Assembly: GCF_056712565.1 (NCBI RefSeq)
Contig: NZ_CM160072.1
Strand: one strand, 5' to 3'
DNA: 64,000 nt
In this document: positions 29,648 through 60,592 of the stretch, in pieces
Layout of the letters: each line of letters opens with the position of its first letter
Position numbering within the stretch: position 1 is the stretch's first letter
Translations under genes and position numbers: made by a program
The notes under the pieces: generated by a model
What the model saw: only the letters and a program-made list of their open reading frames with translations
The model's database searches: none
What the model was told of the DNA's origin: nothing

Positions 29648-29652
29648 ACCGG

Positions 29653-37266: not shown

Positions 37267-37279
37267 GACATCCGGCGTT

Positions 37280-39493: not shown

Positions 39494-39535
39494 TACTGGA
39501 GTTGACCCAATCAACCTTCACAGGCATCGATAAAA

Positions 39536-40237: not shown

Positions 40238-40783
40238 TTATTTTTTCTTGCCGCTGGAACGAGGACCTTTCTTTGCTGCCTCCTGCGGTACATCAGATTT
40301 TGTAGGTTTAGTGTTTTCTATTGAGGGTTTAACTGGTTGATGCTGCTCCACGGACTTCAGCGTTTCATCAGTGACATCCATACAGGATGCGCTGATTGAC
40401 GTATCAAGGTTAACCACCGGGAATGTCTGTGAAGGCGCGTTTTCAGCCTGCAGTGTCGGTTGTGCAGCAGGCACTTCAGGTTGAGGTTCTGCGACGCCGG
40501 CGGTCACTTTAGAGTGAATAATCTGCTCGATATGCTGCGCGGTGCGGGCGATCACCTTATGGGCATACACCTCGCCAACCCGGCTTGCCGCGCTGATGGC
40601 TGCCGCTACCGCCGCGTTAATTGCGCCCACTTCCCCTTCCAGCTTCACGGTCACCATCCCGCCGCCTTTCGTCAATTCATAGCCTACCAGACTAACGTTA
40701 GCGGATTTCATTGCGGCATCGGCGGCTTCTACCGCCGCAGACATCCCGACGGTTTCGATTAAGCCTAAACTTTTCCCAGACAT
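40238..40783 (-). CDS. BMC-H shell protein (PduA/EutM fold) with ~90-aa Pro/Lys-rich C-terminal extension
   Basis: MSGKSLGLIETVGMSAAVEAADAAMKSANVSLVGYELTKGGGMVTVKLEGEVGAINAAV... then a low-complexity tail; start at internal Met preferred over ORF-track start. Confidence 0.8.
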   Translation of the reverse strand: MSGKSLGLIETVGMSAAVEAADAAMKSANVSLVGYELTKGGGMVTVKLEGEVGAINAAVAAAISAASRVGEVYAHKVIARTAQHIEQIIHSKVTAGVAEPQPEVPAAQPTLQAENAPSQTFPVVNLDTSISASCMDVTDETLKSVEQHQPVKPSIENTKPTKSDVPQEAAKKGPRSSGKKK

Positions 40784-40827
40784 AAATTTCTCCTGTAATA
40801 AATTCAACTGTGCTGCGCGTCGTCGGC

Positions 40828-41979: not shown

Positions 41980-42107
41980 AGCGAGCCCACTTGTTTGGGA
42001 AGTTTATTCCTATCTTAGGATAGGAACCTGACAAGTGGGCGTAAACTATCTTGCGGGCGTGTTGGACTATTTTGCTTTCATTATCGGGCCAATGCAAAAT
42101 CACGCCA

Positions 42108-43163: not shown

Positions 43164-43179
43164 ATGTCCTTTTCCTGTA

Positions 43180-44442: not shown

Positions 44443-44501
44443 ATATTTATAAATAATTTGTCGCGAAAAAATTGAAATGGATCACAGCAACAAAAACAGC
44501 T

Positions 44502-44651
44502 CCGGCTCTGAAAGTAATGCTTCGGTTATTTGCAAGGGATACTCCTTTTCAAACCTTGCTGAACCAGTGCAGATACACAGGGAAACGTATACCAGAACTG
44601 CCACAATACAAACGCCAGTTACTGGCGATACGAATGGAATGACGAGGCAGT
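44502..44651. repeat. Copy 2 of the inverted repeat (see 37099-37266); lies in the upstream region of the PocR kinase operon and abuts the group II intron 3' end
   Basis: Same alignment as copy 1; contains the perfect palindrome cgccagt-t-actggcg. Confidence 0.6.
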
Positions 44652-44713
44652 CTGTCAGAAAGCCCCACATGAACGATCACCACCTACATAGGAGGTGTTT
44701 TAAAATTGATCGA

Positions 44714-46515
44714 GTAGGAGGCGGGATCACTCCCGCCGTCCTCTCACACCACCGTACATGCGGCTCCGCATACGGCGGTTCATGTTAACACTGGAACTGC
44801 CTCTGCTGTTCCAGCAGTGATATCAGACCCTGCCTGCTGAACCACGCATTCTTTATCGCCTGATTCATATGGCTTGACTCTGAGTTCCACCATGGCCCGT
44901 GGTTGTTGTACGCTGAGATCATCGCCCTGTCCTTACTCAGTCCTGCTCTTTGCAGGTTCTTTGCCCGGGTTAGCGGTCTCTTCCACTGCCGCTACAACAA
45001 GCAACGCAGTTTCCGTTTGATCCAGCCATCCAGCTCCTCCAGCACTCCTCTGACCTCCGTCAGCCTGAAGTAGCTTATCCATCCACACAGCACTGGTGTC
45101 AGAGCATTGATTGTCGCTTTCACTGATTTGCTCCGGTTTCCCGTCGTCAGACTGTGGACTTTCTCCTTCAGCCTGTTCACGCTCGTCAGGGCTATCTTCA
45201 GCTTCGCCTGTTTGTGCCATGTCACACTGTACCCGAGGAACTTCCGATCCCACGGGCGCGCCACCGCGCTCTTCTTCTCATTCACCTTCAGTTTGTTCTC
45301 CACGAACGCCCTGATGTTCTTCAGCAGATGGTCGCCCGCTTTCCGGCTGCTTACGTAGATGTTGCAGTCGTCTGCGTAGCGGCAGAAGCTGTGTCCACGA
45401 CGCTCCAGTTCTTTATCCAGTTCATCCAGCAGGATGTTCGACAGTAACGGCGACAGTGGGCCGCCCTGCAGCATGCCCGCCTGCCGTTTCTCCCTTTGCC
45501 CGTCTTTAACCATTTCCGCTTTCAGGTAGCGGCGTATCAGTCACAGCACCCGCCTGTCCTTTATCGTTCTGGCCAGACGCGTCATCAGGAGTCTGTGATC
45601 CACCCGGTCGAAGAACTTCTCCAGATCCATATCCACCACCCACCGTTTGCCACCCCGTATGTAACGCTGTGCCTGTTGCACCGCCTGCTGGATAAGCCTG
45701 TCCACCACCGTCGGGATGCCTGAGGTTCTCACGCCGCCATCCGGCTTCGGGATATCCATCCGGCGTATTGTCCGCGGCTGGTAGTTTCCGTCAATCAATG
45801 CCTGCCTGACGCTGCGCCAGTTCTTCTTCAGCCACGGTTTCAACTCCGCCACGCTGAGGTTATCCACCCCCGCCGTGCCTTTGTTTTCCACCACGCGCTG
45901 ATAAGCCAGCATCAGGTTTTCTCTCGTTATCACCGCTTCCATCGTCAGCGGCACTTCCGCTTTCGTTTGCCCACCCGCCGCCGTGCTGATTTCAGCGCCA
46001 TCATGCAGCCCTGACGGATACTGTCCGTCTCCTCTGCCGCTGGTCGCAGTGGCCTGCGCTTGTGCTTCATTAATCATCATCGGGTTCGGATGTCCTAATC
46101 ACAGTTAATCATGTTCGGCCCTTCATGCTGCCGGTTTTGCAGCACTACTACGGCGTCGGCTGACTTCTGCCGCCCCATCCCGGCGCCTCACGGCGCCGGT
46201 AGCACACTGGCAGGGCGACAGATCTCCCGGGGTAATTCACGCGACTTTCCTGCTTATGCCTGTCGGCTTTACGTCACAGCGTTCCGTGTGAGTATCGGGC
46301 TTTGGTGATTAGTGCCACCTTACCCTGCTGCGCCGCCTTAACCGCTTCCTGTTCGTCAGGCCAGCATTTTGCATCCAGCTTCCTTCAGATTTCACCTCGC
46401 GATGAACACCCTTGCCTTCCGCTAACACTTCCCCTCACCGGGTGTGTGGAGGACTTTCACCTCTTAGTCGTTCTTCTGCCACCACAGTTGAAGAACAGCG
46501 CCAGTCACGGCGCAC
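44714..46515 (-). mobile_element. Group II intron (bacterial class C-like: inserted just downstream of an intrinsic terminator)
   Basis: Minus-strand 5' end GTGCG at 46511-46515, six nt after the terminator U-tract; domain V-like hairpin (GAACCGCCGTATGCGGAGCCGCATGTACGG) and domain VI-like hairpin near 44715-44780; RT ORF inside; 3' boundary approximate. Confidence 0.7.
44992..45942 (-). pseudogene. Intron-encoded reverse transcriptase/maturase interrupted by in-frame stop codons
   Basis: RT motifs (GVDNLSV, QGGPLSPLLSNILLDELD, FCRYADDCNIYV) and X-domain (CGWISYFRL); in-frame TGA at 45541-45543 and TAG at 44992-44994 after which the frame still reads RQWKRPLTRAKNLQ. Confidence 0.7.
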
Positions 46516-46525
46516 ATAACAAAAA

Positions 46526-46548
46526 GCCAGCAGGCAGACACTGCTGGC
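46526..46548 (-). terminator. Rho-independent terminator of the upstream membrane-protein gene; insertion target of the intron
   Basis: gccagcag-gcagaca-ctgctggc hairpin flanked by A5 and T5. Confidence 0.55.
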
Positions 46549-46565
46549 TTTTTGTTATGGCGGGA

Positions 46566-47471
46566 TTAAAACAGGGGAACCAAGGTAAATAATCCAATGG
46601 TCGCCAACAGATTAATCATCGTGGTCATAATGGTGATGACCATCGCCGGCGGGTCAATATGTGTATCGCCGTGGATCAGGAAGATACGCGACATCAGTTC
46701 ACCCAATATCGCGCAAATTATGCCAACGATAGCAGCCCAAATCAGGCTACCTGATGGCACCGCTACCAACGCGGCAGGCAGCGAAATATGATGTGACACC
46801 GGTACCTGAGTATTGAAATGCAGGAAAATCAGTGAGAACGCGGAAATACCAAACGCCAGCAGCGCGCCGTTGCCGCCAAACTTCAGGCCTAAAAAGCCTG
46901 CCATCAAGCCAATACCCAAGCCCAGCACGGAAAGCTGCGGAATGCGGCTATGGTAAGGTATCCAGCACTTATCCTGCGGCGGATAGCAGTGACGAATTCC
47001 CTGCTCCGGTTTTCCAAACAGGCCAGTTTTACCGAAAACCAGACGCGAGACCACGCCAGAAATCACCACGGTTAGTGCCACGGTATCGGTCCAAGCATTG
47101 CCGGACGGGAAGGCCGGAATCTGGTTCAACCCCCAGGCGATGATGTAACCAACCGCCCCAAAAACCCCGCCTACCAGCAGCACATCGTAAGCCGCCAGAC
47201 CGCTCAACCCGGCAGTGATATCACGCCCGGAACCCAGCTTGCCTTTCTTCGCTGCATACGCCGTCGCCGCAACCCCAGCGGCAAAGCCGCCGGTGTGCGG
47301 GCCAAACAGTCCAAACGGAAAAGTAATAAAGTCCGATGATGCTCCGGTAATAATTTGCACTACCGTCATGGCGATAACCAGAAGCCCAACGAATTCAAAC
47401 GCCGCCAGCGCGCCAACAGCCGCACCAAATATGCCGCCGCCGAAGGCAACTACAATATCTAAGCTATTCAT
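46566..47471 (-). CDS. Polytopic membrane protein, probable transporter (family not recognised; no NPA motifs, so not a GlpF/PduF-type channel)
   Basis: 301-aa Gly/Ala-rich hydrophobic ORF directly downstream of the activase gene. Confidence 0.55.
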   Translation of the reverse strand: MNSLDIVVAFGGGIFGAAVGALAAFEFVGLLVIAMTVVQIITGASSDFITFPFGLFGPHTGGFAAGVAATAYAAKKGKLGSGRDITAGLSGLAAYDVLLVGGVFGAVGYIIAWGLNQIPAFPSGNAWTDTVALTVVISGVVSRLVFGKTGLFGKPEQGIRHCYPPQDKCWIPYHSRIPQLSVLGLGIGLMAGFLGLKFGGNGALLAFGISAFSLIFLHFNTQVPVSHHISLPAALVAVPSGSLIWAAIVGIICAILGELMSRIFLIHGDTHIDPPAMVITIMTTMINLLATIGLFTLVPLF

Positions 47472-47607
47472 CTAGCTTACCTCTGTAATTAAATCAAATG
47501 ACAATATAAGTAATGCAGATTGCTCTATATTTTTAAAATTGAAATAGTATTCATGCGTAACAAATAAACAAGCGCAGCATTTTTTCGCACTCTTATTACA
47601 TCTTTTA

Positions 47608-48525
47608 TTAACCGCCGATATGGCAGTTAAAACCTAAGGATTCAACCATTGCTTTTAACTCTGCCATTTGGGCTTCTTCGATACTTTTTGTATCGCCCAT
47701 CGGATACTGGCGACCAAGCAGATTATATTTATTTTCACCGAAGCTGTGATAAGGCAATAAGTGAATGGTATCGACGTTCTGCATCAGGCGGGCGAACTCC
47801 GCAATATTATGGATTTCCTGCGAATTGTCATTCACTCCTGGGATCACAGGAATACGCACAACCACTTTGGTTAAAAAGGAGATGCGCAGCAGATTCTCCA
47901 GAATCACTCTGTTATTCACGCCGGTGTTGCGCTCATGGATTTCCGGATCGATGGCTTTAATATCGGTCAGAGCAAGATCGACATAGGGAAATATCTCATC
48001 AATCACCGCTTTGGTGGTGAAGCCGCTTGTTTCAATAGCGGTGTGCCAGCCTTTGGCTTTACAGGCTTTAAGCAGCTCGCGGGCAAATTCCGGCTGCGCC
48101 AGCGGTTCACCACCGGACAGGGTAATCCCGCCGCCTGAACGCCGGTATAAATTCTCTTCTTTTTCCAGTTCGCGCATCACTGCCGTTACCGACATACGCT
48201 TGCCCTTCATTTCCAGCGCACGGGTAGGGCAAATCTCAGTACATTTCCCACACTGAATACAGCGGTCGCGATTGATAAACCAGGCATTAGTAGTGGAAAG
48301 AGCCTGTTGTGGGCAAGCATCAATACATTTTCCACAGCGGATGCAATCATTCTTTTTAAATAATAACTCTGGGCTGTGACGTTGTGATTCAGGATTACTA
48401 CACCATTTGCAGGACAGCGGGCAGCCTTTAAAAAAAGGAATGGTTCGAATGCCTGGACCATCATGCAAAGAATAGCGTTGAATATTAAATATGACGCCTT
48501 CGGTTTCGTACTCAACTTTATTCAT
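47608..48525 (-). CDS. Glycyl-radical enzyme activating enzyme (radical SAM, with two ferredoxin-like 4Fe-4S motifs)
   Basis: 305-aa ORF with CPLSCKWCSNPE radical-SAM motif and CIRCGKCIDACP / CIQCGKCTEICP clusters. Confidence 0.9.
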   Translation of the reverse strand: MNKVEYETEGVIFNIQRYSLHDGPGIRTIPFFKGCPLSCKWCSNPESQRHSPELLFKKNDCIRCGKCIDACPQQALSTTNAWFINRDRCIQCGKCTEICPTRALEMKGKRMSVTAVMRELEKEENLYRRSGGGITLSGGEPLAQPEFARELLKACKAKGWHTAIETSGFTTKAVIDEIFPYVDLALTDIKAIDPEIHERNTGVNNRVILENLLRISFLTKVVVRIPVIPGVNDNSQEIHNIAEFARLMQNVDTIHLLPYHSFGENKYNLLGRQYPMGDTKSIEEAQMAELKAMVESLGFNCHIGG

Positions 48526-48633
48526 AACATCACTCTATATTTACCAGATGAATTACCTTTTCAGATAAAAGTAACAACCAGAAGTCGTGGAGAAAGTAAC
48601 GGGCTATATATTGATACATAGCCCGTCTGGTAT

Positions 48634-51186
48634 TTACGACAGTTGTTGCTCAGTACGGCTGATTATGTCGTCCTGAACTTCTTTCGCTAAAACTACCCAC
48701 TGGGCGCTATAGCCCGCAACGCGTACCACCAGATCCTGATGTTGCTCAGGATTTTTCTGGGCTTCGATCAAAGTGTTGCGGTCGATAACGTTAAATTGAA
48801 CGTGCATCCCTTTCTTATCGAAGTAGTGACGTATCAGGCCGCTGAAGTTGCGCAGACCGTTCTCGCCAGCCAAAGAAGACGGCAGGAATTTCTGATTATA
48901 GAGCGTACCGTTGGAGGCGATAAAGTGATCCAGTTTGGCAACTGAGTTGGCTGCGGCGGTTGGGCCAAGGGTGTCTTTACCCTGACGTGGAGATACGCCA
49001 TCCGCCAACGGCTCTTTCGCCAGACGGCCATCCGGCAGTGCGGCAACGTCTTTACCAAACAGCACGTTCGCAGACACCGGATAGATACCAGCCTGGAACT
49101 GGCCACCGCGCGGGTTGGTATATTTCTCAACTTCCTGGCAGTAGATCAGCGCACATTTACGCGCTACTAAATCCACGTCATCGATGTCGTTACCGAAGCA
49201 CGGTGTGTTTTCCAGAATACGACGGATCTCCTCGTGACGGGACATAGTGCCGGATTGCACCGGTGCTGCACTGCCGGAAGTCAGCTGGCGATAAACTTCG
49301 TTTTTAATCGCTGCCGGATCCAGCGCGCCATGCTGTTCAATGATGCGTTTCACCACATCGTAGATATCCTGCTCGTTGAGCGAGGATTTCGCCGCTGGAG
49401 TGTGCGGGTTCGCACCCACCGGATAACCGAAGTTGGCGTCCAGTGCGCTTTTCAGTTCGCTCAAAGACAGTTTACGATCTTCGAATACCTGTTTCTGGAT
49501 GGCATAGACGGAGTCGCCGGTATCGGCTACGCCGAATGCTTGCGGCCCAGTAAAGTTGTAAATCGCCCCGCCTTCCTGGAGAGATTTACCACGGCCGATA
49601 CAGTCGTCGACCAGTGCTGATAGGAACGGCAGCGGGCAGCGTTCGCCGTGGGCAATATCCACGCTGTTACAGGCTTCAACCAGTTGATGAACGAAGTGCG
49701 CCATCTGTTTCTGGAACGCGGTGTAGAAGTCCTCCATGCTGGTGAACTGAGTCAGTTCGCCAGTCACTGGGCCTAGCTGTTTATTGCCAACGCGACCGTT
49801 GTTCAGGGTGATTTCCAGCACTTTTGCAACGTTAAAGAACGCGGCGTCATGCCAGCCCTCGGTGCGATGCGGTGCCTGCGGCTCTACGCAGCCGATGATA
49901 CAGTAATCACGCGCATCACGCAGCGAAATGCCACGGTTCTGCAGCGCCGGGATGATTACTTCATCGTTGTACATTGCCGGAACGCCCAGGCCCATACGCA
50001 CCAGCTCGCAAGCGCGATACAGAAACTCATCCGGAGTACCCTGCCATACGCGGATTGAGAAGGATGGCTGCGGCAGACGCACATGGGCAGTCGCTTCCAT
50101 ACACATGTAGCTCAGATCGTTAGTTGCGTCGCGACCGTCTTCTGTCTGGCCGCCACAGCACAGGTTCTGGAACACTGCGTAACCGGCAAACGCCTGGGCA
50201 GAGACTTCGTCACGCGTTTTGTTAATGTCGTTAAGCTTGATCCAGCAGCAATCCACCAGTTCCTGCGCGAATTCACGCGAGATAGATTTGTCCGACTCCA
50301 GATACGGGTACATATACTGGTCGAAACGCCCCGGGGAGATAGAATGACCGCTGGATTCAATCTGTAACATGCTCTGAATAAACCAGAATGTCTGGCATGC
50401 TTCCCAGAATGTGGTAGCACCGTATTCCGGCACGCGAGTACAGTTTTGAGCAATCTGCTCCAGTTCGCGTTTACGGGTCGGATTGCTCTCCTGCTGCGCC
50501 AGACGGGATGCTTCTTCAGCGTAACGATGGGCGAAACGGATCGCTGCGTTATAACTGATCAGCACCGCATTATAGAACTGTTCTTTCTTTATATATCCTG
50601 GTTCAGTGCGATCTAATGATTCCAAGGCACGGCTAACTTCATTAATGATACCACGGAAACCAATTTTCAGCACTTTACCGTAGTCAACACTGACATGACC
50701 GACGCCCCCGAAGAAGTAGTTACCAACAGTGAATACACCGCTCGCCATACTCTCTTTAGTGCCTTCTGACATGTAAGATGCCGCCAGAGCACTGGTAGTT
50801 TTACCCGGCCAGTATTTAAATGCTTCATGAAGCTCCTGAGCAGTCTTTTTCGGGATAACAAACGGGTCGGCAATACGGTGTTCCATAGTCTCAAACTCTT
50901 TTTCCACCCAGTCGTAGGAGAACTCAGGGCAGATTTCAGTTGAGCGAGGATTAATAGTTACCGCTCCAACGATTAATTCGTCTGGGCGAATTGTTACCGG
51001 TAATTGGTTAAAGATTTTTTCCACCACTTTAGCACGACGCATAATCGCGGGCAGTTGTTCTGTTTCTTTATATGCTTCGGTTGCTAACACCGCGCGTTCT
51101 GATTCCACATACGGCTTCGCCGTCAGGATCATATTTCTCAGTCTTACAACACGGTCTGTCGGATTAGAAAAGCCTTTCTCTAACAT
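48634..51186 (-). CDS. Glycyl radical enzyme of the dehydratase/eliminase clade (probably B12-independent 1,2-propanediol dehydratase; choline TMA-lyase or another diol/amino-alcohol lyase not excluded)
   Basis: 850-aa ORF with catalytic GCVEP motif (DYCIIGCVEPQ) and C-terminal glycyl radical motif VVRVAGYSAQW; substrate assignment is inference from locus context. Confidence 0.85.
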   Translation of the reverse strand: MLEKGFSNPTDRVVRLRNMILTAKPYVESERAVLATEAYKETEQLPAIMRRAKVVEKIFNQLPVTIRPDELIVGAVTINPRSTEICPEFSYDWVEKEFETMEHRIADPFVIPKKTAQELHEAFKYWPGKTTSALAASYMSEGTKESMASGVFTVGNYFFGGVGHVSVDYGKVLKIGFRGIINEVSRALESLDRTEPGYIKKEQFYNAVLISYNAAIRFAHRYAEEASRLAQQESNPTRKRELEQIAQNCTRVPEYGATTFWEACQTFWFIQSMLQIESSGHSISPGRFDQYMYPYLESDKSISREFAQELVDCCWIKLNDINKTRDEVSAQAFAGYAVFQNLCCGGQTEDGRDATNDLSYMCMEATAHVRLPQPSFSIRVWQGTPDEFLYRACELVRMGLGVPAMYNDEVIIPALQNRGISLRDARDYCIIGCVEPQAPHRTEGWHDAAFFNVAKVLEITLNNGRVGNKQLGPVTGELTQFTSMEDFYTAFQKQMAHFVHQLVEACNSVDIAHGERCPLPFLSALVDDCIGRGKSLQEGGAIYNFTGPQAFGVADTGDSVYAIQKQVFEDRKLSLSELKSALDANFGYPVGANPHTPAAKSSLNEQDIYDVVKRIIEQHGALDPAAIKNEVYRQLTSGSAAPVQSGTMSRHEEIRRILENTPCFGNDIDDVDLVARKCALIYCQEVEKYTNPRGGQFQAGIYPVSANVLFGKDVAALPDGRLAKEPLADGVSPRQGKDTLGPTAAANSVAKLDHFIASNGTLYNQKFLPSSLAGENGLRNFSGLIRHYFDKKGMHVQFNVIDRNTLIEAQKNPEQHQDLVVRVAGYSAQWVVLAKEVQDDIISRTEQQLS

Positions 51187-51234
51187 ATAAAACTCCCGAA
51201 TATATTTTGTTAACCTTGCGGAGATGCCAGGGTA

Positions 51235-51810
51235 TTAATGAATAATGCTAGTGCCCATTTGAGTAATAAAGTGACGTAATATTGCTGGATGCCCCATCCA
51301 GGTAGTCGCGGTTATTAAATTACCATCCACAATGGCTTCATCATCTGCGGCAGTGACCCACTGGCCACCCGCCATTTCCACTTCCGGTTTTACCGTAAAA
51401 TATCCCGTCAGTTTCCGGCCTTTTAATACCCCAGCAGCGGCCAGAATTTGTGGGCCATGACAAATTGCAGCAACAGGTAATGTTAAATTCATCGCGTAAT
51501 GCACGATATCCAATACTGACTTATTTAATCGCAAGTATTCCGATGAACGCCCACCAGAAATATAAACACCACTATATTCCTGTAACCTTATGTCATCAAA
51601 TGATGCAGTTAATCTAAAAAGATGTCCGGGTTTTTCGGTGTAGGTCTGATCACCTTCAAAATCATGAATCGCGGTTTTAATAAACTCGCCGGTACGTTTT
51701 CCCGGACACACTACATCCACTCTGAAACCTAACATGTTTAATGCCTGCCATGGCACCATGACTTCATAGTCTTCAGAGAAATCGCCTGTGATAAGTAATA
51801 TCTTCTTCAT
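51235..51810 (-). CDS. DJ-1/PfpI-family protein (class I glutamine amidotransferase-like)
   Basis: Start at internal MKKILLITGDFSEDYEV (191 aa); nucleophile-elbow motif VAAICHGPQILAAAGVL. Confidence 0.75.
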   Translation of the reverse strand: MKKILLITGDFSEDYEVMVPWQALNMLGFRVDVVCPGKRTGEFIKTAIHDFEGDQTYTEKPGHLFRLTASFDDIRLQEYSGVYISGGRSSEYLRLNKSVLDIVHYAMNLTLPVAAICHGPQILAAAGVLKGRKLTGYFTVKPEVEMAGGQWVTAADDEAIVDGNLITATTWMGHPAILRHFITQMGTSIIH

Positions 51811-51820
51811 AAGCGGACTC

Positions 51821-52120
51821 TCAAAACTGGTTATCGTCTTCCTCAATGATTCGCATGGCTTCATGCACCGCCGCGACTTCGCCAAAAATGGCCAATGTGG
51901 TGATATGCTGAGGGCAACTGCCAAAGATTTCTGATACCACCACATTGGCGCTTTTACTGGCTACGTCGGCATAAAAATAGAGATCCGGAACCGGCAGTAT
52001 TAACAAACCAATGGCGTCGATGCGAATCAAATCCAAACGCGAACGAAACTCCCCGGGCATACGCCGTTTCAACATAGCCAAAATATCCGGGGTCGGTGCG
52101 TTTATGATTCGTTTTTTCAT
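51821..52120 (-). CDS. BMC shell protein, EutS/PduU-type (circularly permuted BMC domain)
   Basis: 99-aa ORF ...IGLLILPVPDLYFYADVASKSANVVVSEIFG...TLAIFGEVAAVHEAM... resembling EutS/PduU. Confidence 0.65.
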   Translation of the reverse strand: MKKRIINAPTPDILAMLKRRMPGEFRSRLDLIRIDAIGLLILPVPDLYFYADVASKSANVVVSEIFGSCPQHITTLAIFGEVAAVHEAMRIIEEDDNQF

Positions 52121-52143
52121 CTTTAAGTCACCCTTCGCGATAG

Positions 52144-53661
52144 TTAGCGAATATTCAGCGCTTCAACCATTACACAGCGACGACGGCGTGCAAACGAACG
52201 CGCTGACGTAAGTCCCTCGCCGGTCGGTCCGGCAATCGTAAAGGTGGCATGCCCTTCACCGCCCACCCCCAGCCCTGCATAAGAGGGACCATTTTTAACA
52301 AAGATGGTGGTCTGGATCAGGCGCGCCATTTTGGTCAGCTTTTCGACGTTGGTGGAGTGCATAACCGCGGTATGACGATTGCCGTGCTCCACTTTCACCG
52401 CCAGCTCAATGGCTTCATCAACATTGTCTACGCGCACCACCGGCAGGACCGGCATCATCAGCTCATGCACCACAAACGGATGTGTTTTCTCAGCCTCAAT
52501 TAAGATGACTTTGATATCGTCGCCAACCTGGATTCCCAGTTGTTGCAGGATATAGCGCGCATCTTTGCCGACAAAGGCGGTATTCGGCCCAGTGCCTTTT
52601 TCATTAAGCACCAACGATTGCAGTTGTTGACTTAACTTCTTATCGCACAACAGATAGGCACCGCTTTTCTTCATGCAGTGAATCAGATAGTCCGCTACCT
52701 GGTTCACAACAATCACCTCTTTTTCCGCCACGCACGGCAGGTTGTTGTCGAAGCTACAGCCCTTAATGATGTCGCGGGCTGCTTTTTCGATATCCGCCGT
52801 TTCATCTACCACAGCTGGCGGGTTACCTGCGCCTGCACCAATCGCTTTTTTACCTGATGACATCACGGTTTTCACGATGGCTGGACCGCCAGTCGCTACC
52901 AGCATGTTGATACGTGGGTCGTTGATCAGGACGTTGGTATTGTCGATGGACGGTTTGGTCACCGTTACCACCATGTTCGCCGGTGCGCCCAACTGGGCAA
53001 GCTTGTTGTTGATCAGCTCAACCGCGTACAGCGACACTTTGCGCGAGCGCGGATGTGGACTGAACACCACAGTGTTGCCTGCCGCCAGCATGCCTATGCT
53101 GTTGTTGATAATGGTTTCGGTCGGGTTAGTCGTTGGTGTAATCGAACCAATCACTCCGAACGCAGAGTATTCGATCAACGTTAAACCCCCGTCTCCGGAA
53201 ACCGCGCTGGTGGTCAGATCTTCGATACCTGGCGTTTTCAGCGCTGCGACGCGGTTTTTGATCAGTTTGTCCTCGTAATTCCCCATGCCGGTCTCTTCCA
53301 CCGCCATACGGGAAAGGGCACACAGCACATCTTCCTGCAGGAAGACATCGCGAATGCCATTGATAAACGAGGCGCGGTCTTGCATAGAACAGTGGCGATA
53401 CTGTACCTGTGCCAAGACGGCGGCGGAAATCGCCTCATCCATGGTATCGAATGCTCCAGTGCTAGCATTCGCTACCTTCGCTACCTGAGAGATCGCACTG
53501 GCGTCGCGCACGGAAGAGTGCTGCGCCAACGCCTTAGCGACAATTTCATCCAACCCGTCGACCCGCGCTGCTTCTGACGTGGCGGGAGCTTCATCCGGTG
53601 TTGCTTTGGTGAATTTGCTCAGGATGGTCGAGACAGCCTGAGCGATTTCAATATCATTCAT
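52144..53661 (-). CDS. CoA-acylating aldehyde dehydrogenase (PduP/EutE family)
   Basis: 505-aa ORF with aldehyde dehydrogenase core including catalytic Cys region NNLPCVAEKE. Confidence 0.9.
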   Translation of the reverse strand: MNDIEIAQAVSTILSKFTKATPDEAPATSEAARVDGLDEIVAKALAQHSSVRDASAISQVAKVANASTGAFDTMDEAISAAVLAQVQYRHCSMQDRASFINGIRDVFLQEDVLCALSRMAVEETGMGNYEDKLIKNRVAALKTPGIEDLTTSAVSGDGGLTLIEYSAFGVIGSITPTTNPTETIINNSIGMLAAGNTVVFSPHPRSRKVSLYAVELINNKLAQLGAPANMVVTVTKPSIDNTNVLINDPRINMLVATGGPAIVKTVMSSGKKAIGAGAGNPPAVVDETADIEKAARDIIKGCSFDNNLPCVAEKEVIVVNQVADYLIHCMKKSGAYLLCDKKLSQQLQSLVLNEKGTGPNTAFVGKDARYILQQLGIQVGDDIKVILIEAEKTHPFVVHELMMPVLPVVRVDNVDEAIELAVKVEHGNRHTAVMHSTNVEKLTKMARLIQTTIFVKNGPSYAGLGVGGEGHATFTIAGPTGEGLTSARSFARRRRCVMVEALNIR

Positions 53662-53721
53662 CTTTAAATTCCTTACTACTCTTCATCTACCGACCGCGCC
53701 GCGTGCATCGTCATCAGATGC

Positions 53722-54507
53722 TTAGATATATGGCGTCGTGGTGGATTTAATTTCCACCGGATCTAACGTGGAGAGCAGTTGTAGACCGACTTCACGCGCG
53801 GCAATCACCGCCTGACGTACTGCACCGGAATCACCGGAGAAGGTGAAGATCACTTCGTTACTAAAGCTGGTGCCTTGCGACGGGCTGGCATAACCCACCG
53901 GGTCAATCACGGCGGATTTCGCCGCAGCGTCGGCAATCACTAGGCCAATCGCCGCAGGCGAGGCACAGGTCATCCCGAAGGATTTACCAATCGGCGCACC
54001 CAGCGCTTTATTCAGCGCGTAGCTGGCACGAGCGGTGTACTGGAATTCAAGATGTCCGGCTGACGAGCCATAAACGTCACCCATGGTGCGTTCAATTTCA
54101 GACAGCGCCACTTCAACCGCACGCCTGACGTCGGAAACATCAGACGCACCAAAAATAATTAAGCAACCGTGTCCGCCACCTCCTTCGGTATCGCGGGCCA
54201 GCTCAATAGAAATAATTTCGCTGTTGGTTGCTTTAATCGCTTCGTCAGCCGCAAAAATTTGCGGGCCTGCGCCAGTACGTGCGCCAAGAATACCGATAGA
54301 GCGATATTTCTTGTCGATATTCATGACTTCATGCAATTGATTATCAACATTGGCAATCACTAGGCCGATAGTGTGGCCCAACGCAGTGCCGACAAATTCC
54401 GTAATACCGCAACCAGCGAAATTTGCTGCTGTTTTAGCTTCCGGTGAGATATCGGTTTGTTTATTCATTACGTCAGATATAATCTGCTCAACAAGATTAT
54501 CTCTCAT
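53722..54507 (-). CDS. BMC-T shell protein (tandem BMC domains, PduB-like)
   Basis: 261-aa ORF with two BMC-like repeats. Confidence 0.75.
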   Translation of the reverse strand: MRDNLVEQIISDVMNKQTDISPEAKTAANFAGCGITEFVGTALGHTIGLVIANVDNQLHEVMNIDKKYRSIGILGARTGAGPQIFAADEAIKATNSEIISIELARDTEGGGGHGCLIIFGASDVSDVRRAVEVALSEIERTMGDVYGSSAGHLEFQYTARASYALNKALGAPIGKSFGMTCASPAAIGLVIADAAAKSAVIDPVGYASPSQGTSFSNEVIFTFSGDSGAVRQAVIAAREVGLQLLSTLDPVEIKSTTTPYI

Positions 54508-54528
54508 GATCAGTATCCTTTATTGTTA

Positions 54529-54810
54529 TTAACCGATAGCCTTCGGTAGAATTTTTTCCACCTCAATGTGTGGGCGTGGAATAACATGTACGGAGACCAG
54601 TTCTCCCACTTTACTCGCAGCAGCGGAGCCCGCATCTGTCGCGGCTTTCACTGCGCCAACGTCGCCGCGAACCATCACAGTCACCAAGCCGGAGCCGATT
54701 TTTTCATAACCCACTAGGGTCACGTTGGCAGATTTCACCATGGTATCTGCAGCTTCAATTGCAGAAACCAGACCTTTCGTTTCAACCATTCCTAATGCTT
54801 CTTGTTGCAT
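54529..54810 (-). CDS. BMC-H shell protein (PduA/EutM-like)
   Basis: Start at internal [57 protein letters not shown] (93 aa). Confidence 0.85.
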
Positions 54811-55094
54811 AACGACCTCAATATTTCCGATAGAAAGAAAACGTGCACAGAGGAATAGCAATCTACGGATTCACCCATGTGCATTAATTATTTAATTATC
54901 ATAATGCTAAGGTTATTCAGACAAAATGTTTTGCGCGTCAGTGGGACTATCTTGCTTTTGCATTCCCGCAATTGACAATAAAATCCACCCGAGGTTTGTA
55001 ATAAAAGATCTGCGTTTAAATTTCCTTGCAAAATAGCCCCGCTCTGAATAGCAATCATAATTACTGTTAAAACTGTCGTATTTTTGCCAATTAG

Positions 55095-56291
55095 TTATGC
55101 CGTGCGGGCAATCTCCGCTGCATCTATAGCAATCATTTTTTCTTCATTGGTTGGGATGACCGCAATCTTCGTGGTGTCGGTTTTAGAAATCAGTCCGCTA
55201 CGTCCGCCGAACAGCTGCTGGTTACGTTCTTTATCCAGTTCCAATCCCAGCGCCTGAAGGCGTTGCACGGTAAGTTCTCGAATTAACGCCGAGTTTTCGC
55301 CAATTCCACCGGTGAAAATCAGCGCATCGAAGCGTTTAAGCGAGGTCACGTGGCCGCCGATATGTCGTGCGAGACGATGTACTAACACGTCGATGGCTAA
55401 CGCTGCCCGTTCGTGGCCCTCATCACGCGCCTGCTGAAGGGTGCGGCAATCGCTGGATAAGCCGGAAATCCCCATTAGGCCGGACTGGTTATTGAGCATT
55501 TTGTACAGCGTGTCGAACGTTTGACCTGTGCGTTTCGCCAGATATGCGACGACACCAAAATCAAGATCCCCGCAGCGCGTGCCCATTACCAGCCCTTCCA
55601 GCGGGGTCATACCCATTGAGGTGTCAATGCTCGTGCCGTTTTGCACCGCACATAGCGATGAACCGTTGCCCAAGTGGGCAATCACGATGCCATGATCCGC
55701 CGGGTCGAGATCTAGTGATGCAAGCGCCTCGGCGGCAATATAGCGGTGAGATGTTCCGTGAAAGCCGTAACGTCGCACCATATAATCTTGCTGGAACTCC
55801 AGCGGGATCGCATAGGTGTAAGCAGCCGGAGACAAGGTCTGGTGGAACGCAGTATCGAACACCGCAATATGCGGCAACGCGGGCAACAGAGCCCGAGCCG
55901 CTTCAATACCAATCAGGTTGGCAGGGTTATGCAAAGGGGCCAGCACCGACAGCGCGCGGACTTTTTCGATCACATCATCGGTAACCAGTACTGATCTTTT
56001 GAAGTCGCTGCCGCCATGAGCCACGCGGTGCCCAACGGCGTTGATGGCTTCCAACAGTTGCTGTTCGTCGAGCTTCGCGAAGAGCACTTTGAGCGCATGC
56101 TGATGGCTGGCGTCATCCAGCGCGACAGTGGATTTATGGCCGTCTCGGTCTTTAAACGTTATGACAGCATGATCAATACCCAGTCGTTCCGCTAGGCCCG
56201 ACAGCAACGGCTGATCTGCATCCTGAGGAATGACGGAGAATTTCATTGATGAGGAACCACAATTAATCACTAATACACAAGCTAAAGACAT
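55095..56291 (-). CDS. Acetate/propionate kinase (AckA/PduW/TdcD family)
   Basis: Start at internal MSLACVLVINCGSSSMKF (398 aa); ASKHA motifs FHGTSHRY and FTGGIGENS. Confidence 0.85.
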   Translation of the reverse strand: MSLACVLVINCGSSSMKFSVIPQDADQPLLSGLAERLGIDHAVITFKDRDGHKSTVALDDASHQHALKVLFAKLDEQQLLEAINAVGHRVAHGGSDFKRSVLVTDDVIEKVRALSVLAPLHNPANLIGIEAARALLPALPHIAVFDTAFHQTLSPAAYTYAIPLEFQQDYMVRRYGFHGTSHRYIAAEALASLDLDPADHGIVIAHLGNGSSLCAVQNGTSIDTSMGMTPLEGLVMGTRCGDLDFGVVAYLAKRTGQTFDTLYKMLNNQSGLMGISGLSSDCRTLQQARDEGHERAALAIDVLVHRLARHIGGHVTSLKRFDALIFTGGIGENSALIRELTVQRLQALGLELDKERNQQLFGGRSGLISKTDTTKIAVIPTNEEKMIAIDAAEIARTA

Positions 56292-56319
56292 GATGCCCCC
56301 TGAAATGGACTGCAAAAAA

Positions 56320-56817
56320 TTAACGGGTTGTTGTGAGGGGATAACGCAGAACGCTAAACTGCGCCATCGCCTGGCGGGCGATGAGCATATCTTCCTCAAC
56401 ACTGCCGCCGCTGATGCCGATGCCGCCTAGTAAGCGCCTGCCCGACCAGCAGGGAAAACCACCGCCGAAGCAGCAGATATCTTTTTCTTTCTCAAGGCCG
56501 TACAAATCACCACCCGGCTGTACCAGCGTTGCCAGTTCGTGAGTTGGCATTTTGAGAGCTACCGCGGTCCAGGCCTTTTGTGGTGCCAAGGTATGGCTGA
56601 CCAGCAGGGCGTTATCCATGCTGAAGAAAAAACGCTGCTGACCGCAGGCATCCACTAGGCTAAAAACGATCGATACATTGCTGGACTGTGCTATTTCCCG
56701 GACCAACTTTGCCAGCAGTTCACTGTCCTCCAGGCTCAGCGACATCCGGAGTTCCGGTAACTGCGTGGCAATAGCCTCGTTAATCCAGTTGTCGAGTGAA
56801 GCCTCATTCGCAGACAT
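56320..56817 (-). CDS. GlcG/PduO-C-terminal-like (DUF336, heme-binding-type) protein
   Basis: 165-aa ORF with C-terminal GGIGISGGSVEEDMLIARQAM motif. Confidence 0.65.
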   Translation of the reverse strand: MSANEASLDNWINEAIATQLPELRMSLSLEDSELLAKLVREIAQSSNVSIVFSLVDACGQQRFFFSMDNALLVSHTLAPQKAWTAVALKMPTHELATLVQPGGDLYGLEKEKDICCFGGGFPCWSGRRLLGGIGISGGSVEEDMLIARQAMAQFSVLRYPLTTTR

Positions 56818-56844
56818 AAGTATTCCTCAGCGTACGCGCCGCTA

Positions 56845-57114
56845 TTAACCGTTAAGTTCGAGCGAGTCGACGATACCCACCACGGCAGCGTCAATCACCG
56901 AGTGATCTTTGTTGTTGCTCATACGCGCCGAACTGCCGGTGGTGATGATCACAATCTCTCCATTGCCCGCGCCGACAGTATCAACTGCCACCTGGGCATG
57001 AACAGTCGGCTGATAGTTTTCATCGAGCCGCGCCACTATCAGCAGTTTTGAGCCATTCAGCGAGGCGTGTTTGGTGGTGGAAACCAATGCGCCAGTAACT
57101 TTAGCGAGGTACAT
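56845..57114 (-). CDS. BMC-P vertex (pentamer) protein, EutN/PduN/CcmL family
   Basis: 89-aa ORF MYLAKVTGALVSTTKHASLNGSKLLIV...GAGNGEIVII... Confidence 0.85.
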   Translation of the reverse strand: MYLAKVTGALVSTTKHASLNGSKLLIVARLDENYQPTVHAQVAVDTVGAGNGEIVIITTGSSARMSNNKDHSVIDAAVVGIVDSLELNG

Positions 57115-57125
57115 ATTTCCTCCGG

Positions 57126-57830
57126 TTAACCATGGATAACAGTGAGATTACGCCGCTGGATTTCATCTCTGGCAGCAGGGGTAATCAGCGTGTCGCTCTC
57201 AATGCGCAGCACTGTGCCAATGGTCAGTAGGCGGATATCGCTCTGGGTGATTAAACGTTTTTTACCGGCTACTGTCAGGGTGGATTGGCTTCCTTGCACC
57301 GACTTGACATGGGCTGCACGTTTACCGAAAAGCGTAATGCCATAGCTCTCTAGGACCTGAGCGTAACCTTCCAGACAAGACAGCAGTGGCATCGGTAATT
57401 CGCTATCGACGCATTGTTGATGCAGCGTGGCGATAATCTGTTTACGGTGCTGTAACGTCTGAAATACAGTTTCACAGGCCAGATTATCGCGAATGCCCAG
57501 CGCAATTTTGCTCATGCTGTTGACAGAGAGCGCAGGCAGATAGAGCACCTCATAGTGAGGCGGCGATCTGTCAAATCCAGCACGAGAACCACGCTGAATT
57601 AGCGCATCCATGCAGACAGATTTCAGCGCCGACTGGCTGGCGCTGTGAGAAAAATTTACCCACAACTGATAACCCGCCAGCTCAAGCGCCTCAAGGCAGT
57701 TCAGCGTTTCCGGCAGCGAGGAGATATCCTCACCAGTCACCACTACGCAGACATTTTTCTGCGCGACGGATTGTGCCAACACTTCAGCGATGACCCGGTC
57801 CAGCAGTTGCGATAAGGTTTGATTGTCCAT
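57126..57830 (-). CDS. Hypothetical protein of the microcompartment operon (possible flavoprotein-like fold; unassigned)
   Basis: ORF track 241 aa; start at internal MDNQTLSQLL preferred (follows the EutJ-like stop); VCVVVTGEDISSL motif; family uncertain. Confidence 0.45.
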   Translation of the reverse strand: MDNQTLSQLLDRVIAEVLAQSVAQKNVCVVVTGEDISSLPETLNCLEALELAGYQLWVNFSHSASQSALKSVCMDALIQRGSRAGFDRSPPHYEVLYLPALSVNSMSKIALGIRDNLACETVFQTLQHRKQIIATLHQQCVDSELPMPLLSCLEGYAQVLESYGITLFGKRAAHVKSVQGSQSTLTVAGKKRLITQSDIRLLTIGTVLRIESDTLITPAARDEIQRRNLTVIHG

Positions 57831-57834
57831 TGAT

Positions 57835-58593
57835 TTACCCCTGGTCCGCATTCATGGCGATGCCTAATGGTGTGACCAATAGTGGCTCTGCCGAAGGAAT
57901 CACATTTTTACCGGTTTGTTTACTGAACACGTTGGCAAACTGGCTGAAGCTGCTCGCGCCACCTACCAAATAAATATTTTTTACCTGCTGGGTAGCGAAC
58001 CATCCCGACACCAAGCTGGCCATTTTCTGGGCCACCGGTAGCACCAGGGTAAAGACCTGCGCTTCCTGCCCGTTTTTTTTCATTTCTTCCGCCTCGGCAT
58101 AAGGCAAGCCCAGCGCGCCAGCGATCACCAACTTCATATGGCTTCCACCGGTGGGCTCATCGGCACTGAACGTCACTTTACCGCTTTTCAAAATGCTCAT
58201 GCCGGTGGTGCCTCCTCCGACATCCACCACCGCCCCGTTTTTAATATTCAGCGCGCTGGCAGCGGCTACCGGTTCATCTAGTACTTGGGTCACGATAAAA
58301 CCCGCCAACTCCACTACGTTGACGATCACTTTTGTGTTGCCTTCAGAGATCCCCGGTGGGACTGCGATCGCCGCGCGCTCCAGCGTGCAGCCCTGTTTCT
58401 GTTCAAGAATTTGTTTGAGACGTGCTACTACCCGGCTGGCGGTCAGGTAATCCACCACCACGCCGTCTTTCACCACATTGGAGGGATACATTACCCCTGC
58501 CACCGGCTGGTTATCTTCATCCAGCACCACGATTGCGATATTGGCGGTACCGAGATCCCCCCCACCTTCAACGCGCCGGAGTAGGGCCGACAT
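57835..58593 (-). CDS. EutJ-like actin/Hsp70-fold chaperone; N-terminus apparently displaced by a -1 frameshift in a C7/G7 homopolymer
   Basis: 252-aa ORF with DLGTANIAIVV and VDVGGGTTG motifs; an upstream ATG at 58653-58655 reads MANSPENCRFHELAALIDSGECRPYSGALKVG in another frame and would join in-frame if the run at 58557-58563 were 8 nt. Confidence 0.7.
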   Translation of the reverse strand: MSALLRRVEGGGDLGTANIAIVVLDEDNQPVAGVMYPSNVVKDGVVVDYLTASRVVARLKQILEQKQGCTLERAAIAVPPGISEGNTKVIVNVVELAGFIVTQVLDEPVAAASALNIKNGAVVDVGGGTTGMSILKSGKVTFSADEPTGGSHMKLVIAGALGLPYAEAEEMKKNGQEAQVFTLVLPVAQKMASLVSGWFATQQVKNIYLVGGASSFSQFANVFSKQTGKNVIPSAEPLLVTPLGIAMNADQG

Positions 58594-58647
58594 TCGCCGC
58601 TGTCAATCAGCGCGGCCAATTCGTGAAATCGGCAGTTTTCGGGGCTG

Positions 58648-59334
58648 TTAGCCATGGCGCGCAGCCTGTTTTATGCCGCGAACGGTATCGCCATTACGCA
58701 GACCGACGCCGTTAGCTTCTTCCATATCAATATGCAGTTCCAGCACTGCATCCGCCGTGACGCGTACCACTACATGGCTGAGCACACCACCGCGCGGACC
58801 GTTTGTTTGCACATCGATTTCCATTCCGTCATGCAGGCCGTGCAGTTCGGCTTCTTCGGGCGAGATATGGATATGGCGCCAGGCGACAATCATGCCGTTG
58901 TGTTTCACCACCCGCCCTTTCGGACCGATGATTTCAATGCCCGGCGAATCCAGCAGATCCCCCGACATGCGCACCGGAGCTTTAGTGCCCAGCGCAAAGC
59001 CGTCGGCCACAGAGATTTCCACCTGCGTGGCATTACGCAGTGGCCCTAACACGCGCACTTTGTTGAGCTCGCCTTTTGGCCCGCGCAGCGTCACCATCTC
59101 TTCGGCGGCATACTGACCGGGCTGTTTCAACGCTTTAGAACGGGTTAGCGTAGAGCCGTAGCCAAACAGAATGTCCATATCTTCACGGCACAGATGAACA
59201 TGGCGGTTGGACACGCCCACCGGAATATTCAGCGCGACAGGCGCGGCAGCAGGCGCTGCCGTTTTTTTACTGGTGGCAAGTTCCTGCAAAATTTGTTGGG
59301 TAATCCACTCGGCTTGTTGTTCGGTGTAATTCAT
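58648..59334 (-). CDS. PduL-type phosphotransacylase (phosphate acyl-transferase)
   Basis: 228-aa ORF with PduL signatures NRHVHL and WRHIHISPEEA. Confidence 0.85.
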   Translation of the reverse strand: MNYTEQQAEWITQQILQELATSKKTAAPAAAPVALNIPVGVSNRHVHLCREDMDILFGYGSTLTRSKALKQPGQYAAEEMVTLRGPKGELNKVRVLGPLRNATQVEISVADGFALGTKAPVRMSGDLLDSPGIEIIGPKGRVVKHNGMIVAWRHIHISPEEAELHGLHDGMEIDVQTNGPRGGVLSHVVVRVTADAVLELHIDMEEANGVGLRNGDTVRGIKQAARHG

Positions 59335-59473
59335 AATGGGTACGACCTGATTATTGGGTTATCTTATGGGTAATGGGCGTCTAACGATCAGGATAGGGAG
59401 TAACGACGCCCGGTTTTTGTTTATCAGCAGGACTTTTTTGACTGCTTCACGGAGGCTGAACAAAGTTATCCAG

Positions 59474-60592
59474 CTAGCCGGTAATCAGGTCGATCAACCC
59501 TTCGACATCATGCGTCGTCACCTGCCGCGGGTTCGACGCGGTACAACCGTCGGCCAGCGTCGAATTCACCAGTGCGCTGCGCAACTCGATGATTTTTGCA
59601 CGGTCGATGCCCAGTTCGCTGAGAGTGACGGGGATGCAGAAATGGCGATTGATCTGGCGGATCTCCTGAGTCATCAGCGCGATGGCCTGCTCCGGTACCG
59701 CATGGTCAATGCCTATGATTTGCGCGCAACGGTGATAGCGATCGCGGGTTTCAGTGCTGGCCCGTTTGCTGTTGAAGTCGATGACAATCGGCAGCAGCAT
59801 GGCGTTAATTTTGCCATGAGGAATATGCAGCATCCCGCCGATGGCGTGTGCCATGCCGTGTACCAACCCCAGCCCGGCGGAGTTAAATGCCATGCCTGCC
59901 ATACAGGAGGCATTGTGCATGTGGGTGCGCGCCGCAATGTCTTTTTCGTCGTTAAACACCTGCGGCAGATAGCGCCAGGTCAACGCGATGGCTTTTTCCG
60001 CCAGCGCATCGCTAAAGTCATTTGAGCCAGTAGAGACAAAGGCTTCAATGGCATGGGTCAGCACGTCCATGCCGGTATCTACCGCGACATGACGCGGCGC
60101 GGTTAACACTAGGTTAGGATCGAGAATGGCGATTTCCGGCACCAGTTGCCCGGAGATCAACGGATATTTGCGGCCATTTTGCGGATCAGAGATGATCGCG
60201 TAGGACGTCACTTCAGAGCCGGATCCGCTGGTTGTGGGAATAGCAATGAGATCGATTTGATGATCTCCAAAATACTCTTCCAATGTGACTTTAATTCCTT
60301 TCGCAGCGTCCAGCGACGAGCCGCCGCCGAGGGCGATAATAACGTCGGGCTTAAAGGCTTTAAAACGCGCCGCGCCGGAAGTCAGAATATCAATATCTGG
60401 ATCCGGAGTAACCTCACCGAAAATGCATACCGATGCCTCAGGCATATGGCTTATTAAATAACGAGTTTTACCTGATGACATCATAAAATCATCGGTGACA
60501 ATACCGACTCGTTTATTATTAAATTGGCATAGAGAGGTTATTGCCTCTTCACCAAAATAAATTTTGGGGCACGAAAAATAATAGCGGGCCAT
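59474..60592 (-). CDS. Iron-containing alcohol dehydrogenase (PduQ/EutG-like); first gene of the operon
   Basis: 372-aa ORF with Fe-ADH motifs GGGSSLDAAK and His-rich metal site; 5' intergenic region upstream. Confidence 0.9.
   Translation of the reverse strand: MARYYFSCPKIYFGEEAITSLCQFNNKRVGIVTDDFMMSSGKTRYLISHMPEASVCIFGEVTPDPDIDILTSGAARFKAFKPDVIIALGGGSSLDAAKGIKVTLEEYFGDHQIDLIAIPTTSGSGSEVTSYAIISDPQNGRKYPLISGQLVPEIAILDPNLVLTAPRHVAVDTGMDVLTHAIEAFVSTGSNDFSDALAEKAIALTWRYLPQVFNDEKDIAARTHMHNASCMAGMAFNSAGLGLVHGMAHAIGGMLHIPHGKINAMLLPIVIDFNSKRASTETRDRYHRCAQIIGIDHAVPEQAIALMTQEIRQINRHFCIPVTLSELGIDRAKIIELRSALVNSTLADGCTASNPRQVTTHDVEGLIDLITG

Follow-up and report, generated by a model that had tools for sequence, protein, structure and literature searches.

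The 64,000-nucleotide stretch of DNA analysed here (contig NZ_CM160072.1 of RefSeq assembly GCF_056712565.1; hereafter the window) contains the published grp locus, a 1,2-propanediol microcompartment locus of the glycyl radical enzyme-associated type known as GRM3b, and the present analysis concerns two of its accessory genes, grpL and grpF. The Grp organelle carries out 1,2-propanediol fermentation via a B12-independent glycyl radical dehydratase. The explanation favoured here, with moderate confidence, is that both gene products are accessories of this known microcompartment, grpL most likely encoding a glyoxalase of the DJ-1d type and grpF a probably lumen-targeted protein that may bind a small ligand. 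The RefSeq labels 'protease' and 'heme-binding protein' are homology labels, which comparison at the level of individual residues does not favour.

An earlier note on this DNA, made from the letters alone, had placed a DJ-1/PfpI gene with the nucleophile elbow AICHGP between the gene for a glycyl radical enzyme (GRE; 48634-51186) and a PduU/EutS-type shell gene (51821-52120), and a GlcG/PduO-C-like gene between the vertex gene (56845-57114) and the kinase gene (55095-56291). Both positions were borne out, as was the elbow (GrpL residues 115-120), and the two family assignments proved to be far beyond chance in domain searches (PF01965, E 2e-41; PF03928, E 3e-29). The note was also right that neither gene encodes a core metabolosome enzyme.

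GrpL and its DJ-1d relatives

The grpL gene (51235-51810; on the minus strand, as are all features of the grp cluster described below) encodes a DJ-1d-type DJ-1/PfpI protein of 191 aa, annotated in RefSeq as 'propanediol utilization system protease GrpL'. The program-made open reading frame (ORF) of 51235-51945 (236 aa) is too long, its first 45 codons overlapping the upstream grpK gene; the gene begins instead at the ATG of position 51810 (MKKILLITGDF...), which is located 10 nt past the grpK stop codon and agrees with the RefSeq coding sequence. The Pfam DJ-1_PfpI model PF01965 was matched by residues 2-183 over model positions 1-164 of 165, and the elbow, which contains Cys117-His118, is encoded at 51451-51468. 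GrpL scored 152.9 bits against NCBIfam TIGR01382 (the PfpI/YhbO subfamily), above the cut-off of 139.05, and remained below the cut-offs of the equivalog models for deglycase PfpI (NF040823, 90.9 versus 330 bits), the glyoxalase III HchA (NF003168, 26.2 versus 365 bits) and TIGR01383 (35.3 versus 131 bits). Judged by these scores, GrpL is not an orthologue of deglycase PfpI, of HchA or of the TIGR01383 glyoxalase III.

The closest solved structure, by a wide margin, was that of the Arabidopsis thaliana protein DJ-1d (AtDJ-1d, At3g02720; PDB 3uk7, 4ofw, 4ogg), both tandem domains of which were matched over their full length (E 5e-55 and 2e-62), followed by archaeal PfpI (E 1e-24) and E. coli YhbO (E 1e-15). 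The AlphaFold2 model of GrpL (predicted local distance difference test score, pLDDT, 92) superposed on 4ofw with a template modelling (TM) score of 0.92, a root-mean-square deviation of 1.7 Å and 55% identity. In a global alignment, identity was 49% with the N domain and 55% with the C domain, the alignment being gap-free internally but for one residue and the same Cys-His pair and Glu residues being present in both proteins. The plant protein differs in being a tandem domain duplication, whereas GrpL consists of one domain, is operon-linked to a glycyl radical enzyme and has an activity predicted from sequence. Pyrococcus PfpI/PH1704 and E. coli YhbO also share the fold and the triad positions, Cys117, His118 and Glu91 of GrpL aligning with C100, H101 and E74 of PH1704 (triad residues taken from the published structure paper); they are, however, only ~30% identical to GrpL, which is ~25 residues longer and does not reach the PfpI equivalog model. 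Among 81 GrpL homologues 47 residues were invariant, including E16, E91, C117 and H118. These comparisons show that GrpL, a bacterial protein of one domain, belongs to the DJ-1d clade and has an intact Cys117-His118-Glu91 set and Glu16. Among the glutathione-independent glyoxalase III enzymes that have been tabulated, AtDJ-1d has the highest efficiency (Km 0.1 mM, kcat 1700/min), and its orthologues OsDJ-1C and GmDJ-1D2 are active too (PMC4702089, PMC5859077). The same function, glutathione-independent glyoxalase III, is the most likely prediction for GrpL.

No encapsulation-peptide-like terminus was found in GrpL, the predicted fold of which covers residues 3-184 and leaves a tail of 7 residues. 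Locus-linked orthologues are of similar size (187-195 aa) and carry no extension, the exception being the V. salinus protein (202 aa), with an 11-residue C-terminal tail. As it lacks a targeting peptide, GrpL would be either cytosolic or carried in on the GRE. Locus-linked and free-standing GrpL proteins were separated by substitutions at three conservative core positions (I/L, V/T), none of which belongs to the active site.

The distribution of the family was followed by scanning genome contigs with a family alignment, the 80 best loci being a sample of the best matches and not a census. Within this sample the family is highly conserved (~191 aa) and widespread, with members in Bacteroidota, Burkholderiales, Planctomycetota, Halomonas and others, and a GRE lies nearby in 12 of the 80 loci. 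No conserved neighbour accompanies the free-standing genes, their best neighbour cluster (10 of 68 loci) reflecting lineage-specific synteny. Fifteen GRM3 loci with grpL were compared: those of two E. coli alleles, Budvicia, Pectobacterium, V. salinus, R. rubrum, Azospirillum, two Cohaesibacter, Breoghania, a proteobacterial metagenome-assembled genome (MAG), Caproiciproducens, Clostridium, C. sporosphaeroides and Terrisporobacter. In all 15, grpL immediately precedes the GRE gene and is read in the same direction, the order of the other genes being variable, and in many it opens the operon. The locus-linked copies constitute one clade across Clostridia, Alphaproteobacteria and Gammaproteobacteria; as this holds irrespective of host phylum, a single recruitment of grpL is concluded, after which the gene has travelled with the locus. 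When six GRM3 loci were chosen from the GRE side, grpL was present in that of R. rubrum only. The gene is thereby shown to be an optional, locus-linked add-on that is always found directly before the GRE gene.

A module of grpL together with grpO (DUF7973 permease) was also considered and rejected; it held in seven loci and failed in Pectobacterium, V. salinus, Azospirillum and R. rubrum, the Pectobacterium and V. salinus loci having a major intrinsic protein (MIP) channel instead of grpO. A separate cluster was observed in a Eubacterium sp. MAG (L015, 1211-10546), where genes for a GRE, an activating enzyme, an S-adenosylmethionine synthetase, a histidine kinase and a response regulator accompany a DJ-1d-like gene, with no bacterial microcompartment (BMC) shell gene within 14 kb of available sequence. 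This cluster is possibly related to the GRM3 core while lacking a compartment, in which case the DJ-1d-like gene would be tied to the GRE and not to the shell.

Fold, pocket and N-terminal helix of GrpF

The grpF gene (56320-56817) encodes a DUF336/HbpS-like, PduO C-terminal-like protein of 165 aa that is labelled 'heme-binding protein GrpF' in RefSeq. Its DUF336 domain extends over residues 27-151 (56365-56739) and covers model positions 1-127 of 128 in the Pfam HbpS-like/DUF336 family PF03928. The score against the GlcG equivalog NF007275 was 19 bits, far short of the cut-off of 246, and GrpF is therefore 'GlcG-like' at the superfamily level only. The closest structure was PduOC, the C-terminal DUF336 domain of Salmonella PduO (5cx7; E 3e-34, 47% identity, TM score 0.80 on the query and 0.95 on the target), and the other top Foldseek matches were Klebsiella OrfY, the formaldehyde sensor EfgA, NahX and HbpS.

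PduOC and GrpF have a common fold, and both are encoded in 1,2-propanediol microcompartment loci. PduOC, however, is fused to a B12 adenosyltransferase, whereas GrpF is free-standing, has a targeting-type helix of its own and belongs to a B12-independent pathway. The heme of PduOC is bound by His18 of two monomers (bis-His) with a Kd of about 0.16 µM, the H18A substitution abolishes both binding and octamer formation, and the domain is needed for optimal growth on 1,2-propanediol; the same study noted that the heme ligand is not conserved in homologues (PMC4923194). The position of His18 is occupied by Glu33 in GrpF, another feature that sets it apart from PduOC, and by A, C, T, M or E in 19 orthologues. 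The PduOC mode of heme binding is therefore unavailable to GrpF, and the "heme-binding" label reflects family membership only. Residues K81, S136 and D143 of GrpF are invariant and match K57, S114 and D121 of the predicted pocket of EfgA from Methylorubrum extorquens (PDB 6bws). EfgA has the same fold at 33-34% identity, and both proteins are found in aldehyde-generating metabolism; EfgA is, however, cytoplasmic and formaldehyde-specific and acts on translation, while GrpF is probably luminal.

The AlphaFold2 model of GrpF (pLDDT 90) contains an N-terminal amphipathic helix at residues 2-19 (56761-56814), followed by a disordered linker (~19-28, with pLDDT below 50 at 19-23) and by the domain from residue 29. 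Of 16 other GRM3 loci, 15 encode a GrpF orthologue with an equivalent helix, which was weak in V. natriegens. The hydrophobic residues of the GrpF helix follow an i, i+3/4, i+7/8 pattern like that in the N-termini of GrpJ, GrpB, GrpD and GrpI. A terminal amphipathic helix joined to a poorly conserved linker has the form of an encapsulation peptide, and GrpF is predicted to carry one. The hydrophobic moment of the helix (0.44) does not discriminate, known peptides lying at 0.47-0.61 and the 95th percentile of the background at 0.49, and the helix call is therefore based on structure prediction and conservation. An encapsulation-peptide-like terminus, which the earlier note had considered for both proteins, was thus found in GrpF and not in GrpL, where no spare terminal helix exists.

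The order vertex gene, then grpF was common to all of the GRM3 loci examined. Taken together with the structural model, this makes a universal accessory protein, targeted to the lumen and with a putative small ligand, the best reading of GrpF. Against the divergent second E. coli allele of the locus, the ratio of nonsynonymous to synonymous substitution rates (dN/dS) was 0.21 for grpF and 0.12 for grpL; both values fall inside the range of the other grp genes (0.04-0.32) and indicate that both genes are under purifying selection.

Proposed roles and competing explanations

As a glyoxalase, GrpL would use its Cys thiolate to attack a 2-oxoaldehyde (methylglyoxal or glyoxal) at the aldehyde carbon, after which a His/Glu-assisted proton shift would give a thioester and hydrolysis would release lactate or glycolate. 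It would probably clear reactive dicarbonyl by-products of diol or deoxy-sugar fermentation or of GRE chemistry, and would thus stand outside the core pathway. On chemical reasoning, candidate sources of the 2-oxoaldehyde are methylglyoxal formed in deoxy-sugar or dihydroxyacetone phosphate metabolism, or intercepted GRE radicals. GrpF would be delivered to the lumen and might, more tentatively, bind a small ligand in its Lys81/Ser136/Asp143 pocket; as the heme ligand of PduOC is absent, a small carbonyl metabolite would be a more likely ligand than heme.

Several points weigh against this explanation. The PfpI protease triad is also kept in GrpL, so that peptidase or amidase activity is possible, and the pathway contains no established source of 2-oxoaldehydes. 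The grpL gene is absent from the GRM3 loci of R. palustris BisB18, V. natriegens, Lonepinella, Buttiauxella and Rahnella, the last two being arranged as in E. coli, with grpM coming immediately after grpK, and any role of grpL must therefore be dispensable. In Lundin et al. 2020, 8 of 19 grp deletions reportedly abolished growth on 1,2-propanediol, and grpL and grpF are not known to be among the genes required. For GrpF, the K/S/D pocket is conserved across all DUF336 proteins aligned and so does not identify the ligand, and PduOC, with 47% identity, binds heme tightly. Furthermore, EfgA is specific for formaldehyde, propionaldehyde having given no EfgA-dependent effect (PMC8153426).

The exact mapping of the PH1704/PfpI Cys-His-Glu triad onto C117/H118/E91, the name of TIGR01382 ('deglycase/protease') and the tight linkage of grpL to the GRE gene would all be compatible with GrpL being a PfpI-type intracellular cysteine protease or peptidase that processes or clears microcompartment proteins, such as oxygen-cleaved or misassembled GRE. 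The same triad, however, does glyoxalase III work in proteins of the DJ-1d/Hsp31 type (PMC5859077), PfpI-type structures are ~30% identical to GrpL (E 1e-24) compared with ~55% for the glyoxalase DJ-1d, and the deglycase PfpI equivalog score is far under its cut-off (91 versus 330 bits). Most family members among the best 80 loci are, moreover, free-standing genes of bacteria without microcompartments, which argues for a general small-molecule role, and a protease is considered unlikely. Less probable again is a protein or nucleotide deglycase undoing aldehyde adducts inside the compartment, although DJ-1, PfpI and YhbO members have been reported as deglycases and the microcompartment does handle a toxic aldehyde. 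In kinetic work (PMC10127264), what had looked like deglycase activity of DJ-1 was traced to its action as a glyoxalase on free methylglyoxal; propionaldehyde, the aldehyde of this locus, does not belong to the 2-oxoaldehydes; neither GrpL nor its orthologues possess a terminal extension able to serve as an encapsulation peptide; and grpL is missing from many GRM3 loci that make the same aldehyde, several of them close relatives of the present one. The earlier note had allowed for a deglycase or a glyoxalase that repairs aldehyde damage; the glyoxalase part is supported by AtDJ-1d as the closest characterised relative (PMC4702089), whereas the deglycase and repair part is undercut by the same kinetics and by the nature, targeting and distribution points just given.

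A heme- or other tetrapyrrole-binding redox or cofactor-handling role for GrpF, as in PduOC or HbpS, is doubtful, yet it is the alternative to which most weight is given. It draws on the 47% identity with PduOC (TM score 0.95 on the target), on the affinity of PduOC for heme (Kd about 0.16 µM) and its requirement for optimal 1,2-propanediol growth (PMC4923194), and on the abundance of redox accessory proteins in glycyl radical enzyme microcompartments (PMC6325248). Against it stand the replacement of the bis-His ligand His18 by Glu33, and by A, C, T, M or E in the 19 orthologues, the remark in the PduOC paper that this ligand is not conserved (PMC4923194) and the fact that the Grp pathway needs no cobalamin. 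The suggestion of the earlier note that the GlcG-like protein handles a cofactor thus found no support, B12 not being used by this microcompartment and His18 being replaced in all of the orthologues examined. That grpL and grpF are evolutionary passengers without a microcompartment role is the least probable of the explanations. The optional presence of grpL among GRM3 loci would fit it, as would the growth on 1,2-propanediol that Lundin et al. 2020 reportedly saw in most accessory-gene deletions, but the dN/dS values of 0.12 and 0.21 are like those of core genes, the placement of grpL before the GRE gene and of grpF after the vertex gene persists through rearrangement in three bacterial classes, and the targeting-type helix of GrpF is conserved.

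It is also improbable, to about the same degree as a protease, that GrpL is a dedicated GRE partner, which clears radical-derived 2-oxoaldehydes or acts on oxidised glycyl-loop products, and that GrpF is a luminal binder of pathway aldehydes. Traces of O2 would then intercept substrate or product radicals, for example converting a 1-formylethyl radical to methylglyoxal, and a DJ-1d-type enzyme, recruited once, would have been kept before the GRE gene through all rearrangements. Aldehyde binding by GrpF, if true, would extend the EfgA result to microcompartments.

The grp locus and its setting

The window is part of an E. coli chromosome. Its segment 51000-57200 is 100% identical to E. coli ATCC 11775 and to many genomes of extraintestinal pathogenic E. 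coli, and of 5426 complete E. coli genomes 541 contain the locus. At the nucleotide level the 14-kb operon has 99.9% identity with that of E. coli CFT073, the grp locus of which is the same system with the same grpA-grpS gene order and no difference. In RefSeq the minus-strand cluster 40828-60592 is annotated as grpA-grpS, a "glycyl radical propanediol" microcompartment locus. The cluster holds the GRM3(b) gene set, consisting of a GRE with an internal insertion, its activating enzyme, BMC-H, BMC-T and BMC-P shell proteins, an acylating aldehyde dehydrogenase, PduL and an iron-dependent alcohol dehydrogenase (Fe-ADH), and also a PocR-type two-component system.

Downstream of grpL lies grpM, encoding the GRE (850 aa; TIGR01774, 788 bits; RefSeq), and upstream of it lies grpK, a PduU/EutS-type shell gene by ORF, RefSeq annotation and pore motif (GSCPQH). 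The span 51235-56817, from grpL to grpF, also holds, in addition to grpK, the aldehyde dehydrogenase gene grpJ (52144-53661), the PduB-type BMC-T gene grpI (53722-54507), the BMC-H gene grpH (54529-54810) and the propionate/acetate kinase gene grpG; beyond grpF is grpE, for the EutN/CcmL-type vertex protein (grpG and grpE both by ORF and RefSeq annotation). The Fe-S pore motif G-X-C-P-Q-H was defined in GrpU (PMC6325248), and its occurrence in GrpK therefore makes this the putative shell protein with an Fe-S cluster and is a mark of GRM3b. The internal insertion of GrpM (residues ~590-660; 49207-49419), which splits the NCBIfam match in two, includes an amphipathic helix, EQDIYDVVKRIIEQ, and agrees with the intramolecular encapsulation peptide reported from the GRM3 enzyme of R. 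palustris (PMC5311937). The assignment to GRM3b is based on this insertion, on the PduB-type, BMC-H and EutN-type shell genes, on GSCPQH in GrpK and on the island setting. The 'flavoprotein' gene grpD (57126-57851) gave weak matches to the Pfam Flavoprotein and eut_hyp/PduM models, its product has an encapsulation-peptide-like N-terminus, QTLSQLLDRVIAEV, and its start is ambiguous, at 241 aa in RefSeq and 234 aa in the other E. coli allele.

The largest intergenic gap of the operon, 284 bp of AT-rich sequence (54811-55094), separates grpG and grpH. Its length is similar in Budvicia (320 bp) and in the second, divergent allele of E. coli (278 bp), where a few blocks are conserved, and it may be an internal promoter or a regulator site for the shell genes; a promoter and terminator scan gave no usable signal within the grp operon. 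The second E. coli allele (L083, L084) encodes proteins 86-98% identical to those of the window, with dS values of 0.12-0.47; the grpA-grpO order is kept and the grpS-grpR-grpQ-grpP block has the opposite orientation to that in the window. E. coli therefore has at least two old lineages of this island. A degenerate group II intron was found at 44709-46406, between grpO and the regulator genes grpP/grpQ, with domains D1-D4 at 46118-46406 and D5/D6 at 44709-44780 by Rfam and with its reverse transcriptase/maturase broken into two ORFs (45541-46080 and 44992-45513). In the L084 allele the gap downstream of grpO is filled by IS110- and Y1-type transposase genes; as the insertions differ between the two alleles, this gap seems to be a hot spot for insertion.

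The locus is carried on a genomic island beside cadC (~24000-41000), which comprises an integrase fragment and a CP4-type block with an antirestriction gene, a JAB-domain gene and a yeeU/cbtA toxin-antitoxin pair, together with pseudogenes of an RND permease, a transposase and AraC/TetR fragments. No tRNA genes were detected by ARAGORN anywhere in the window.

The locus and both genes have been described and named before, which the earlier note did not recognise, and the observation as such is therefore already known. The grp genes were reportedly named by Lundin et al. 2020 (J Bacteriol), where each of them is said to have been deleted individually. Outside that paper and Zarzycki 2015, a literature search returned nothing relevant on GrpL or GrpF by name or on microcompartments in combination with PfpI or DJ-1. 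In an earlier survey (Axen 2014, PMC4207490), "a peptidase" and "DUF336" were listed as puzzling GRM3 accessory genes, the role of the peptidase being called unclear and the presence of a PduO-type DUF336 in B12-independent loci being called a puzzle. What is added here consists of refinements, not of a new system: the placement of GrpL in the DJ-1d clade, the optional nature of grpL, the invariant adjacencies of grpL to the GRE gene and of grpF to the vertex gene, the targeting-type helix of GrpF and its missing heme ligand.

The gain is incremental and reveals no new kind of system. The locus nonetheless provides B12-free 1,2-propanediol fermentation for ~10% of E. coli strains, uropathogens among them, and the accessory genes are its least understood part. 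If the refinements hold, the database labels "protease GrpL" and "heme-binding GrpF" would be corrected, and the findings would bear on why DUF336 domains recur in B12-independent microcompartments.

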